A stretch of DNA of 64,000 bases from Escherichia coli (GTDB taxonomy: Bacteria; Pseudomonadota; Gammaproteobacteria; Enterobacterales; Enterobacteriaceae): assembly GCF_003019035.1 (NCBI RefSeq), contig NZ_CP027447.1, one strand, 5' to 3'. The position numbers and the translations under genes were made by a program. The notes under the pieces were generated by a model, which was given only the letters and a program-made list of their open reading frames with translations, had not been told where the DNA came from and did no database searches. Position 1 is the stretch's first letter. Each line of letters begins with the position of its first letter. Of this stretch, positions 59,297 through 64,000 are shown one piece after another.

Positions 59297-59980
59297 ATGA
59301 ACCTAAAGAAAACACTGTTAAGCGTGTTAATAATAGTGCCTCTCTGCTTATTGGCAGGGTGTGACTATATTGAAAAAGCGAGTAAGGTCGACGACCTCGT
59401 TACACAGCAAGAGTTGCAAAAAAGCAAAATTGAGGCGCTTGAGAAACAACAGGAACTCGATAAGCGAAAGATAGAACATTTTGAAAAACAACAAACTACT
59501 ATCATAAATAGTACCAAGACGCTCGCTGGCGTGGTGAAGGCGGTTAAAGACAAACAGGACGAATTTGTCTTTACAGAATTTAACCCGGCACAAACCCAAT
59601 ACTTCATTTTAAATAACGGCTCTGTTGGTTTGGCAGGCCGGGTGCTGGCTATTGATGCAGTTGAAAATGGCAGCGTTATTCGTATTTCGCTGGTTAATTT
59701 ATTAAGCGTTCCCGTATCAAATATTGGCTTTCATGCGACATGGGGCAATGAAAGACCCACCGATGCCAAAGCTCTGGCAAAGTGGCAACAATTACTTTTC
59801 AACACCACACTGAATTCCACTCTGCAATTAATGCCTGGTCAATGGCAAGACATTAATCTGACATTAAAAGGCGTTTCGCCTAATAACCTGAAGTATCTGA
59901 AGTTGTCCATCAATATGGCCAATCTCCAGTTCGACACTGTTCAATCTGCTGAAACTCGGCAGCGAAAAAACAAAAAATAA
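59297..59980 (+). CDS. SadB-like inner-membrane lipoprotein (lipobox LLAGC with Asp at +2; coiled-coil region), probable export helper for the downstream trimeric autotransporter
   Basis: 227-aa ORF; signal peptide + LAGC-D; heptad-like QQELQKSKIEALEKQQELDKRKIEHFEKQQ; 43 bp upstream of the adhesin gene. Confidence 0.6.
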   Translation: MNLKKTLLSVLIIVPLCLLAGCDYIEKASKVDDLVTQQELQKSKIEALEKQQELDKRKIEHFEKQQTTIINSTKTLAGVVKAVKDKQDEFVFTEFNPAQTQYFILNNGSVGLAGRVLAIDAVENGSVIRISLVNLLSVPVSNIGFHATWGNERPTDAKALAKWQQLLFNTTLNSTLQLMPGQWQDINLTLKGVSPNNLKYLKLSINMANLQFDTVQSAETRQRKNKK

Positions 59981-60023
59981 ATGCAGCTTCTGCGCTTATA
60001 TCAAGGAATAGAGAGCATCAATA

Positions 60024-63000
60024 ATGAACAAAATTTTTAAAGTTATCTGGAATCCAGCGACGGGCAGTTACAGCGTTGCCAGCGAAACGGCGAAAAGTCG
60101 TGGGAAGAAGAGCGGGCGCAGTAAGCTGTTAATTTCTGCACTGGTTGCGGGTGGATTATTGTCGTCATTTGGGGCATTAGCTCAGGCAGGGTTAGATACA
60201 GGTACTGGTGTTACCCCTGCTGGTCATAATAATGGAACAGGTTGGATAGCTATTGGTACCGATGCTGAAGCAAGCACTCATACCACAACGAATGGCGCAG
60301 CAACTGCCGTGGGCTACTACTCCAAAGCGTTAGGTATGTGGAGTACTACGTTAGGTGCATATAGCCAATCGAATGGCGATTCTTCACTGGCTCTTGGGGT
60401 TAAAGCACAATCTAACGGTGACCGCTCTATTTCGATGGGCGCTTCGTCGAGTGCAAGCATAAATGCGGGTTACTCCATCGCGATGGGGGTATTTGCTTTC
60501 ACCGATGCAGAGTACGCGGTAGCCCTTGGCAATGAGAGCAAGGCACTTGGTAAATACAGCCTTGCATTAGGAAACGCAAGTCAGGCATCTGGCGAATCCA
60601 GTATTGCATTAGGTAACACAAGTGAAGCCAGCGAACAAAATGCGATTGCGCTGGGGCAAGGCAGCATTGCAAGCAAAGTGAACTCAATCGCGTTGGGCAG
60701 TAACAGTTCGTCTGCAGGAGAGAATGCCATCGCGCTAGGAGAGGGCAGTGCCGCGGGAGGCAGCAACAGTCTAGCTTTCGGTAGTCAGTCCAGGGCAAGC
60801 GGCAATGATTCTGTCGCCCTCGGTGTAGGGGCTACAGCAGCGACCGACAATTCTGTCGCTATCGGCGCAGGATCGACCACAGATGCAAGCAATACAGTTT
60901 CAGTTGGCAACAGCACAACAAAACGCAAAATTGTTAATATGGCTGCCGGTGCCATAAGCAACACCAGTACCGATGCCATCAACGGCTCACAGCTTTATAC
61001 GATCAGTGATTCAGTCGCCAAACGGCTCGGGGGAGGCGCTACTGTAGGCAGCGACGGCACCGTAACCGCACTAAGCTACGCGTTGAAAAGCGGTACCTAT
61101 AATAACGTGGGTGATGCTCTGTCAGGAATCGACAATAATACTCTGCAATGGAATAGAACCACGGGGGCATTCACCGCTGCACACGGCTCAAATACCACCA
61201 GTAAAATCACTAATGTTGCTAAAGGTACTGTTTCTGCAACCAGCACCGATGTAGTAAACGGCTCTCAATTGTACGACCTGCAGCAGGATGCTCTGTTGTG
61301 GAACGGCACCGCGTTCAGCGCCGCACACGGCACCGACGTCACCAGCAAAATCACCAATGTCACCGCTGGTGAGCTCTCTGACACCAGCACCGACGCCGTC
61401 AACGGTTCTCAGCTGAAAGCGACCAAGGACGATGTAGCGGCAAACACCACCAACATCACTAACCTGACGAGCGAAGTGGCTGGCAACACCACCAGTATCA
61501 CTAACCTGACTGATACGGTGACTAACCTCGGTGAAGACGCCCTGAAATGGGACGACGCCGCAGGCGCATTCACCGCTGCACACGGCACTAACGCCACCAA
61601 CAAAATCACTAACGTCACCGCTGGTGAGCTCTCTGACACCAGCACCGACGCCGTCAACGGTTCTCAGCTGAAAGCGACCAAGGACGATGTGGCGGCAAAC
61701 ACCACCAACATCACTAACCTGACGGGCGAAGTGGCTGGCAACACCACCAGTATCACCAACCTGACTGATACGGTGACTAACCTCGGTGAAGACGCCCTGA
61801 AATGGGACGACGCCTCAGGCGCATTCACCGCTGCACACGGCACTAACGCCACCAACAAAATCACCAATGTCACCGCTGGCGAACTCTCTGATACCAGCAC
61901 CGACGCCGTCAACGGTTCTCAGCTGAAAACCACCAACGATAACGTGGCGACCAACACCACCAATATCGCCACTAACACCACCAATATCACCAACCTGACT
62001 GACGCTGTTGACAGTCTCGGTGATGATTCCCTGCTGTGGAACAAAGCGGCTGGCGCATTCAGCGCCGCGCACGGCACCGATGCCACCAGCAAAATCACCA
62101 ACGTCACCGCTGGCGAACTCTCTGATACCAGCACCGACGCCGTCAACGGTTCTCAGCTGAAAACCACCAACGATAACGTGGCGACCAACACCACCAATAT
62201 CGCCACTAACACCACCAATATCACCAACCTGACTAACGCTGTTGACAGTCTTGGTGATGATTCCCTGCTGTGGAACAAAGCGGCTGGCGCATTCAGCGCC
62301 GCGCACGGCACCGATGCCACCAGCAAAATCACCAACGTCACCGCTGGCGACCTGACTGCTGGCAGCACTGACGCGGTTAACGGCTCCCAGCTGAAAACCA
62401 CCAACGATAACGTGGCGACCAACACCACCAATATCGCCACTAACACCACCAATATCACTAACCTGACTGATACGGTGAATAATCTCGGTGAAGACGCCCT
62501 GAAATGGGACGACGCCGCAGGCGCATTCACCGCTGCACACGGTACTAACGCCACCAACAAAATCAGCAACGTACAAGCTGGCATAGTCTCCTCTGACAGC
62601 ACTGACGCCATAAATGGCTCACAACTATATGGTTTGGCTGATTCATTCACGTCCTATCTGGGTGGTGGTGCTGATATTAGCGATACAGGTTTATTAACCG
62701 GGCCAACCTATAGTATTGGCGGCACTGACTACACTAACGTCGGGGATGCTCTGGCCGCAATTAACACTTCATTTAGTGATTCTCTCGGTGATGCCCTGCT
62801 CTGGGATGCGACAGCCAATGACGGTGCTGGTGCATTCAGCGCCGGTCGCGGGGTAGATAACACCGCCAGTAAGATTACTAACGTCGCAAATGGTGCAATC
62901 TCTGCCACCAGCAGCGACGCGATTAACGGCTCACAACTCTATACCACCAATAAGTACATCGCTGATGCGCTGGGCGGTGATGCAGAAGTTAACGCTGACG

Positions 63001-64000
63001 GCACTATCACTGCGCCGACTTACACCATTGCAAATACCGATTACAACAACGTCGGTGAAGCTCTGGATGCGCTTGATGAGAACGCGCTGATGTGGGATGC
63101 GACCGCCAATAACGGCGAAGGGGCTTACAACGCCAGTCATGACGGCAAGGCCAGCATTATCACAAACGTTGCTGATGGTAACATTGGTGAAGGTAGCACC
63201 GATGCTATCAACGGTTCTCAGCTGTTTAACACCAATATGCTGATCCAGCAGAACAGCGAAGTCATCAATCAGCTTGCCGGTAACACCAGTGAAACCTACA
63301 TCGAAGAAAATGGTGCAGGTATTAACTATGTGCGTACCAATGACACCGGTTTAACCTTCACCGATGCCAGCGCACAGGGTGTTGGCGCTACAGCAGTGGG
63401 TTATAACTCTGTTGCCAAAGGCGATAGCAGCGTGGCCATGGGTTATAACTCTTTTGCCGAAGGCGATAGCAGCGTGGCCATGGGTCAGGGCAGCTACAGC
63501 GACGTTGATACGGGTATCGCTCTGGGTAGCAGTTCCGTTTCCAGCCGTGTAATAGTTAAAGGGTCTCGTGACACCAGCGTGTCAGAAGAAGGTGTTGTGA
63601 TTGGTTATGACACCACGGACGGCGAACTGCTTGGTGCATTGTCGATCGGTGATGATGGTAAATATCGTCAAATCATCAACGTCGCGGATGGTTCCGAAGC
63701 CCATGACGCTGTTACTGTTCGCCAGTTGCAAAACGCCATTGGTGCAGTAGCAACCACACCAACCAAATACTATCACGCCAACTCAACGGCTGAAGACTCA
63801 CTGGCAGTCGGTGAAGACTCGCTGGCAATGGGCGCGAAAACCATCGTTAATGGTAATGCGGGTATTGGTATCGGCCTGAACACGCTGGTTCTGGCTGATG
63901 CGATCAATGGTATTGCTATCGGTAGCAACGCAAGTGCAAACCATGCAAACAGCATTGCAATGGGGAATGGTTCTCAGACTACCCGTGGTGCGCAGACCAA
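60024..64000 (+). CDS. upaG: Trimeric autotransporter adhesin (UpaG/EhaG-like, YadA family), 5' part only; extended signal peptide, head repeats, repeated neck/stalk units; continues past window end
   Basis: Open frame from the ATG at 60024 with no stop to 64000 (absent from the ORF track because unterminated); N-terminus [21 protein letters not shown]...; repeated ...[23 protein letters not shown]... neck motifs. Confidence 0.88.
61321..62555 (+). repeat. Near-identical in-frame tandem repeats inside the adhesin gene: about 3 x 255 bp followed by about 2-3 x 234 bp
   Basis: Anchor GTCAACGGTTCTCAGCTG recurs at 61398, 61653, 61908, 62142 and (variant) 62376, giving periods 255, 255, 234, 234. 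Confidence 0.85.

Follow-up and report, generated by a model that had tools for sequence, protein, structure and literature searches.

A sadBA-type lipoprotein and trimeric autotransporter operon at the upaG/ehaG locus of Escherichia coli

The yibL–lldP interval and its two genes

The distal end of a 64,000-nucleotide (nt) stretch of Escherichia coli DNA, the whole of which we call the window, carries a gene for a small lipoprotein followed by a gene for a very long trimeric autotransporter adhesin (TAA; type Vc secretion) that runs past the last base. We conclude with high confidence that this region is the E. coli sadBA-type operon, i.e., the upaG/ehaG locus together with an upstream sadB homologue, on a segment of ~6.2 kb that is absent from K-12. 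The site of this island is the interval between yibL and lldP, with mtlD, mtlR, yibT, and yibL upstream in the window, and it is laid out as follows:

58376–58738 (+): yibL, which flanks the island on the left and is the last gene common to K-12 (from the list of open reading frames [ORFs]; annotated in strains SCU-301, CFT073, and K-12)
58739–59296 (+): AT-rich upstream region of 558 bp, lacking in K-12; presumed promoter and H-NS-silenced control region, a role proposed by analogy
59077–59106 (+): sigma-70-like promoter, the best plus-strand match in a consensus scan (TTGACA, 18-nt spacer, TAAAAT; 11/12)
59297–59980 (+): sadB homologue (684 bp, 227 amino acids [aa]), from a phmmer match to PDB entry 4C47; TAA stop codon at 59978–59980
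59981–60023 (+): 43-bp spacer, from the lipoprotein stop to the adhesin ATG (60024), read from the sequence
60024–64000 (+): TAA gene, positional orthologue of upaG, ehaG, and sadA; the first 1325 of 1648 codons lie in the window

The gap between yibL and the lipoprotein gene (58739–59296) has a GC content of 0.32 to 0.36 in 300-bp segments, versus ~0.50 to 0.55 in the flanking genes. The 227-aa product encoded beyond it begins MNLKKTLLSVLIIVPLCLLAG↓CDYIEK, with a positive N terminus, a hydrophobic core, a lipobox (LLAG↓C, so that Cys22 is the lipidated residue), and an aspartate at position +2. In a phmmer search of PDB sequences its sole match was 4C47, “inner membrane lipoprotein” (E = 7.2e-69; query residues 23 to 227 against chain residues 3 to 207), with 108 of 205 residues identical (52.7%) in an alignment that spans the full mature length, coiled-coil segment and C-terminal beta-sandwich alike. 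The alignment with the mature SadB construct of 4C47 opens with the same Asp-Tyr pair. The structure was reported by Grin et al. (PMC3953254), who described SadB as a coiled-coil trimer carrying a beta-sandwich domain at its C terminus. They predicted an inner-membrane location from Asp +2, confirmed it by fractionation and mass spectrometry, and observed that surface SadA becomes more abundant and more protease resistant when SadB is co-expressed. Given the same Cys-Asp-Tyr start as in SadB, the 227-aa lipoprotein is likewise predicted to reside in the inner membrane. It is identical to WP_001562286.1 of SCU-301, and RefSeq names the identical protein either “DUF3251 domain-containing protein” or “SadB/YajI family lipoprotein.” Its gene directly precedes a TAA gene in the same orientation, with a short (43-bp) spacer in between, which is the arrangement by which the SadB family is recognized.

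Translation of 60024–63998 yields 1325 codons with zero stops and a frame that is open at the end of the window, and an open frame of this length cannot be explained by chance. Within it, the adhesin is composed of the following parts:

60024–60182 (+): extended signal peptide, aa 1 to 53, ending ...FGALA↓QAG (PF13018 ESPR at aa 1 to 48, E = 2.9e-15; cleavage site placed by alignment)
60372–60914 (+): N-terminal YadA-like head (Ylhead repeats), aa 117 to 297; YadA_head matches; the most allele-specific part
61137–63080 (+): nine stalk modules, each a DALL-type motif, neck, and coiled coil, aa 372 to 1019 (motif scan and YadA_stalk matches)
61287–62492 (+): tandem DNA repeat core of five modules, with units of 249, 255, 234, 234, and 234 bp (83, 85, 78, 78, and 78 aa)
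61869–62234 (+): interval with the one 234-bp (78-aa) unit that SCU-301 lacks (protein and DNA alignment)
63372–63536 (+): second, membrane-proximal YadA-like head segment, aa 1117 to 1171 (YadA_head at 1117–1143 and 1145–1171)

The hydrophobic core of the signal peptide and the ALA↓Q site at residue 53 can be read directly from the translation, and the signal peptide of UpaG likewise comprises residues 1 to 53 (PMC5670179). Across aa 1 to 1200, Pfam returned 9 YadA_head and 11 YadA_stalk matches, the latter between aa 302 and 1088, and a motif scan of the adhesin found 12 neck motifs and 9 DALL-type motifs. Each stalk module opens with (D/N)xL(L/K/Q/M)W(D/N), proceeds to a long neck of the form ITNVxxG...DA(V/I)NGSQL, and closes with a short coiled coil rich in Asn and Thr; the motif and neck sequences are the DALL2 and long-neck ones listed for SadA in PMC4786415, and the modules match the SadA fragments 2YNZ, 2YO2, and 3ZMF. 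At the DNA level, Tandem Repeats Finder reported periods of 255 (2.6 copies, 93% matches) and 234 (3.6 copies, 88%), and the 234-bp units are identical at 195 to 213 of 234 positions in pairwise comparisons. The second head continues past the window into a region matching SadA 2YO0 and 2YO3 (2YO0 scores 468 bits over aa 1153 to 1418 of the SCU-301 protein). The passenger as a whole matches structures of SadA, AtaA, BpaC, and UspA1, and the NCBIfam models that respond to the adhesin (Vomp, Ata, EmaA, YadA, and BimA) do so only below threshold, which confirms the superfamily and names no specific family within it.

These results bear out a sequence-only reading of the same DNA, which had described an AT-rich region of ~560 bp after yibL, a lipoprotein gene with Asp at +2 after the lipid-modified Cys, a 43-bp spacer, and an open frame of at least 1325 codons, all of them features that hold upon measurement (the AT-rich region being 558 bp long), and which had interpreted the two genes as a SadB-like lipoprotein and a YadA-family autotransporter with an extended signal peptide, as the 4C47 match over residues 23 to 227, the ESPR domain, and the YadA_head and YadA_stalk repeats now indicate. 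Its observation is thus confirmed, and its interpretation is supported.

Long minus-strand ORFs are present at 61188–62650 (up to 253 aa, at 61815–62576). We rejected them as genes: they lie wholly inside the tandem repeats of the adhesin and are best seen as by-products of this repetitive and compositionally skewed sequence (GC skew of −0.12 to −0.27, AT skew of +0.24 to +0.37).

The extra stalk module and the C terminus

The nearest sequenced relative of the window is E. coli SCU-301 (NZ_CP051751.1), a human commensal isolate to which positions 1–62374 are 99.5 to 99.95% identical. Its adhesin, annotated as a “YadA-like family protein,” has 1570 aa, and the 1325 residues encoded in the window are 100% identical to it apart from 78 additional residues that form a single in-frame block. 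In DNA, the two adhesin genes differ only by a clean 234-bp indel: the common prefix ends at 62000 and the common suffix begins at 62103, and since 132 nt are exactly repeated, the placement of the indel is ambiguous within 61869–62234. The additional module results either from unequal recombination between near-clonal strains or from a miscount of repeats in one of the two assemblies.

We regard the second possibility, in which a collapse in SCU-301 or an expansion here mimics a biological length polymorphism, as the less probable of the two, though a serious one. The indel falls within tandem units of 234 bp that have a perfectly identical stretch of 132 nt in common, a configuration often miscounted by assemblers; the SCU-301 sequence shows 19 gap openings against the window in 49.7 kb, and its annotation lists as frameshifted both an Rhs core gene and an ISAs1 transposase gene that the window carries as intact ORFs, a difference suggestive of indel errors in the SCU-301 assembly. 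A public sequence that carries the extra unit (contig UWLZ01000002.1 of GCA_900603765.1, introduced below) may be the source of the window itself and so lends no independent support. Against an artefact stand the size of the indel, which is exactly one unit and in frame, the wide variation in TAA length among strains at this locus (1549, 1570, 1588, 1648, 1672, 1750, and 1778 aa), and the fact that unequal recombination across 132 identical bases is biologically expected.

What follows the window was examined on that public contig, reached by way of the exact lipoprotein sequence in public assemblies, which matches window positions 52297–64000 with zero mismatches over 11,704 bases. Here, the adhesin frame continues without interruption to a stop after 1648 aa (window-equivalent position 64970), so that the complete protein equals the window fragment plus the tail of the SCU-301 protein. 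That tail, identical in SCU-301, contains a YadA_anchor domain (PF03895, E = 1.4e-19), and its sequence also matches two structures of the Hia anchor, 3EMO and 2GR7. The protein ends ...GAGIQW, with a terminal tryptophan; the C-terminal Trp of UpaG matters for its assembly, which involves Bam (PMC5670179). A terminator hairpin with a 13-bp stem lies 24 nt past the adhesin stop on this contig and is followed by lldP, and the order lldP-lldR-lldD is found downstream of the adhesin both here and in SCU-301. The C-terminal anchor that the sequence-only reading had expected upon extension is thus present at the end of an unbroken frame.

It is very improbable that the locus is a relic in decay or under permanent silencing, with genes that look intact in the window but are broken farther on or are never expressed, and hence without function in this strain. 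Such a reading could draw on the truncation of the adhesin gene by the window's end, on the loss of the locus from K-12, on an amber codon at position 3 of the sadB homologue of strain Sakai (evidence that parts of the operon decay in some lineages), on the repression of upaG by H-NS reported in PMC5012682, and on the remark of Grin et al. that the conditions under which native sadBA is expressed were not known to them (PMC3953254). It is opposed by the 1325 open codons in the window, by the public contig's continuation to a normal stop behind an intact anchor ending in Trp, by the complete identity to the SCU-301 protein outside one clean in-frame unit, and by a lipoprotein gene that is intact and retains its signal peptide. 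As a pseudogene, in particular, the adhesin gene was rejected, given an intact 1648-aa gene on a contig with zero mismatches.

Orthologues, the K-12 deletion, and a mosaic passenger

In PMC7247748, UpaG, EhaG, and SadA are described as positional orthologues that mediate extracellular matrix binding, aggregation, and biofilm formation. The position and the upaG/ehaG/sadA relationship that the sequence-only reading had proposed both withstood comparison, in that strains CFT073 and Sakai share the order yibL-lipoprotein-adhesin-lldP.

(i) UpaG (c4424) of CFT073 is encoded in an identical gene order with identical spacings: yibL is followed, after a gap of 558 bp, by a lipoprotein gene of 684 bp and, 43 bp further on, by upaG, with lldP beyond it. 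The upstream gap is 95% identical to that of the window (531 of 558 positions), the spacer is 100% identical, and the lipoprotein is 88% identical. The adhesins share an ESPR signal peptide, a head/neck-stalk/anchor architecture, and a C-terminal region of ~430 aa that is 98 to 99% identical, whereas UpaG is longer (1778 aa, versus 1648 here), has a different number of stalk modules, and is 71% identical overall, with 242 gap positions, in a single end-to-end BLASTP alignment. Along the protein, identity to UpaG is 43 to 70% over aa 1 to 218, a head region that is also shorter, rises to 74 to 92% through the modules, and reaches its maximum in the last ~430 aa.

(ii) EhaG (ECs_4480/Z5029) of O157:H7 Sakai is likewise a positional orthologue with the same flanks and the same domain types, and its anchor-proximal ~330 aa are 95 to 100% identical; it differs in length (1588 aa) and is 63% identical overall, again in a single end-to-end alignment. 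The region upstream of its operon is largely unalignable with that of the window apart from a promoter-like block, and its lipoprotein is only 66% identical and has TAG at codon 3. The Sakai sadB homologue (28507–29190 of the Sakai locus sequence, L005) starts ATG AAC TAG, and the annotated ORF begins downstream of this point, without a lipoprotein signal peptide. Judging from this sequence, EhaG in the O157:H7 Sakai lineage may be without its helper lipoprotein.

(iii) SadB-SadA (STM3690-STM3691) of Salmonella enterica occupies the same site, between the mtl and lld operons, with a spacer of 44 bp versus 43 bp here (PMC3953254). The lipoprotein is 53% identical over mature 4C47 and has the same Cys-Asp-Tyr N terminus, and the adhesin matches the SadA crystal fragments 2YO0/2YO1, 2YO3, 2YNZ, 2YO2, and 3ZMF. 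The pair belongs to another genus, with proteins that are orthologous but diverged, and helper function has been demonstrated for the Salmonella pair only; SadA is also given as ~147 kDa in PMC7247748, as opposed to 1648 aa here.

(iv) YajI (PDB 2JWY), the E. coli paralogue of SadB, is a lipoprotein whose C-terminal domain has the same fold as that of SadB, although it is ~14% identical to SadB, has no autotransporter linkage, and resides at another locus (yajC-secDF/nrdR) (PMC3953254). It was not among the PDB matches of the lipoprotein at E ≤ 0.01.

(v) The prototypes YadA (Yersinia) and Hia (Haemophilus) share YadA_head, YadA_stalk, and YadA_anchor with the adhesin, as seen in matches to 1P9H, 3EMO, and 2GR7, but the adhesin here greatly exceeds them in length and modularity, neither prototype is paired with a lipoprotein of its own, and the NCBIfam YadA score of 74 to 144 bits is far below the cut-off of 750.

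The thought that the adhesin could instead belong to another TAA group of E. coli (the immunoglobulin-binding Eib proteins or Saa), or be a horizontally acquired foreign adhesin, has next to no probability: the divergence of its N-terminal head from both UpaG and EhaG (43 to 70% over aa 1 to 218) and the scores of the Ata, EmaA, YadA, and Vomp models below their curated cut-offs are outweighed by a chromosomal position and spacings that are the same as those of upaG, by the near-identity of its last ~430 aa to UpaG, by the chromosomal location of all matches, with none on plasmids, by the preceding sadB gene, a pairing described as restricted to Enterobacterales, and by size, Eib and Saa being ~42 to 56 kDa according to PMC7247748, versus 1648 aa here.

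With respect to K-12, the sequence-only reading had placed the operon where that strain has lldP. Its statement that K-12 continues with lldPRD was accurate, but the island is inserted before lldP and does not replace it. In K-12 MG1655, yibL and lldP are 371 bp apart; BLAST alignment of K-12 to the window stops at 58739, one base past the yibL stop, and homology is regained 22 nt beyond the adhesin stop, immediately ahead of the terminator hairpin that both sequences have. Grin et al. (2014; PMC3953254) placed the sadBA operon between mtl and lld and noted a 5-kb deletion there in K-12. In place of the ~6.2 kb, K-12 has 95 bp of unrelated sequence (L003:3030–3124), which contains GCCGCATCCGGCA and by eye resembles a repetitive extragenic palindromic element.

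The distribution of the segment was assessed in 5426 complete E. coli genomes. A distal passenger segment (62600–64000) is matched in 4066 of them, always on the chromosome, while the sadB-plus-head segment occurs in ~109 (~2%) and the whole 5.3 kb in 103. Elsewhere (loci L002, L006, and L007), an identical 227-aa lipoprotein adjoins passengers that are only 68 to 82% identical, and identity to the adhesin of the window breaks at residues 38 to 48, inside the signal peptide (window 59297–60170). The position of this break suggests a mosaic locus, in which a recombination boundary lies where the passenger begins, inside the signal-peptide coding region. By these alignments, the window allele is itself a mosaic, joining a C-terminal region of ~430 aa that is nearly UpaG to a rare head and to one more 78-aa module than is found in its nearest sequenced relative. 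Variation in the passenger domain is already on record for upaG and ehaG in PMC7247748.

Expression, proposed assembly, and other features of the window

The promoter match at 59077–59106 lies ~190 nt 5′ of the lipoprotein ATG and is a match to consensus only; its TTGACA and TA(A/G)AAT hexamers fall within a block of sequence that is retained in the Sakai upstream region, which has otherwise diverged and shares few such blocks. No plus-strand terminator-like site was found in 58600–60300, including the interval between the lipoprotein and adhesin genes, and because the two genes are thus separated by 43 bp without a terminator, their co-transcription is supported. Promoter-like and terminator-like matches on the minus strand of 58600–60300 were set aside as the background expected of AT-rich DNA, and a scan with Rfam found no RNA family in the locus. 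PMC5012682 states, citing Totsika 2012, that upaG is repressed by H-NS, and the AT-rich leader would fit such repression.

Several points weigh against the identification of this region as a functional sadBA-type operon, or limit what it implies. The last 323 codons and the anchor lie outside the window and are seen only in identical or near-identical public contigs, of which the identical one may be the window's own source and thus extends the window without replicating it independently. Since neither Pfam-A (which returned only noise, ETRAMP at E = 0.18, and no significant family) nor NCBIfam (no match) recognized the lipoprotein, its family assignment leans on the PDB match and the RefSeq names, although this miss seems to reflect what the searched model libraries lack and does not argue against homology. 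Trimerization and a helper role are predicted for the lipoprotein from its homologues, and among these SadB has been shown to be a helper only as part of the Salmonella SadB-SadA pair (PMC3953254). Expression, co-transcription, and H-NS silencing are, for this strain, likewise projected from homologues, as is the probable adhesive specificity of this allele; because its head is only 43 to 70% identical to those of UpaG and EhaG, the ligand specificity of those proteins cannot, at such divergence, be transferred to it. The identification itself is contradicted by no evidence.

If the operon behaves as its homologues do, which is the basis for every step proposed here (the window contributing sequence features and homologies), its products would be assembled along the following route. 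Transcription would start in the 558-bp AT-rich leader and read through both genes; in laboratory culture, H-NS probably keeps this leader silent. The 227-aa product would be exported and lipidated on Cys22, and the Asp at +2 would keep it in the inner membrane as a coiled-coil trimer facing the periplasm. The 1648-aa adhesin would cross the inner membrane via Sec with its extended signal peptide, which would be cleaved after residue 53, and three chains, each contributing four beta-strands of the YadA anchor, would form a 12-stranded barrel that the Bam complex would insert. The passenger, consisting of a head, the nine DALL/neck/coiled-coil modules, a second head, and a stalk, would then be threaded out and fold into a long trimeric fibre, with the SadB-like trimer aiding assembly of the three chains and improving surface display. 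The finished fibre would mediate extracellular matrix binding, cell aggregation, and biofilm formation. Besides SadB, to our knowledge, only one other dedicated helper of trimeric autotransporter export has been described.

Much of this is already known: the operon, its position, the K-12 deletion, the structure of the lipoprotein, and the domain grammar of the adhesin have all been published, and the exact sequence is in public databases. Correct recognition of the locus is useful for annotation and adds no new biology. Particular to the window are two minor features, a head allele present in a minority of genomes and a stalk with one 78-aa module more than that of SCU-301 (possibly an assembly miscount), which at most would serve in typing or in surveys of antigenic variation. 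Adhesins of the UpaG/EhaG type are studied as colonisation, biofilm, and vaccine-candidate factors, and O-antigen and capsule layers mask SadA. It is conceivable, but we think it doubtful, that the passenger, whose head is rare and has been joined by recombination to a common sadB allele, has a ligand or host specificity distinct from those of UpaG and EhaG and, at the same time, that 78-aa modules are gained and lost by unequal recombination between near-clonal strains in a manner that tunes the fibre; if so, the number of modules would set how long the fibre is in comparison with, for example, the layers of O antigen or capsule.

Elsewhere in the window, an Rhs element occupies 43531–51635 (+). 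It comprises an intact RHS core protein of 1346 aa (43531–47571; NF041261 at 2448 bits), a YhhH-like ORF, yibA, an intact ISAs1 transposase gene (49185–50321), an orphan Rhs C-terminal tip (50336–51109), and an Imm57-type ORF. Two RNA families were also matched by Rfam outside the operon. A sok antitoxin RNA (RF01794; 898–1053 [−], 82.7 bits, E = 7e-17) indicates a chromosomal hok/sok-type locus adjoining an IS150 copy annotated in SCU-301, and naRNA4 (RF02564; 33942–34020 [+], 71.6 bits) is flanked, according to the SCU-301 annotation, by a hicAB toxin-antitoxin pair and a gene of glycoside hydrolase family 127.

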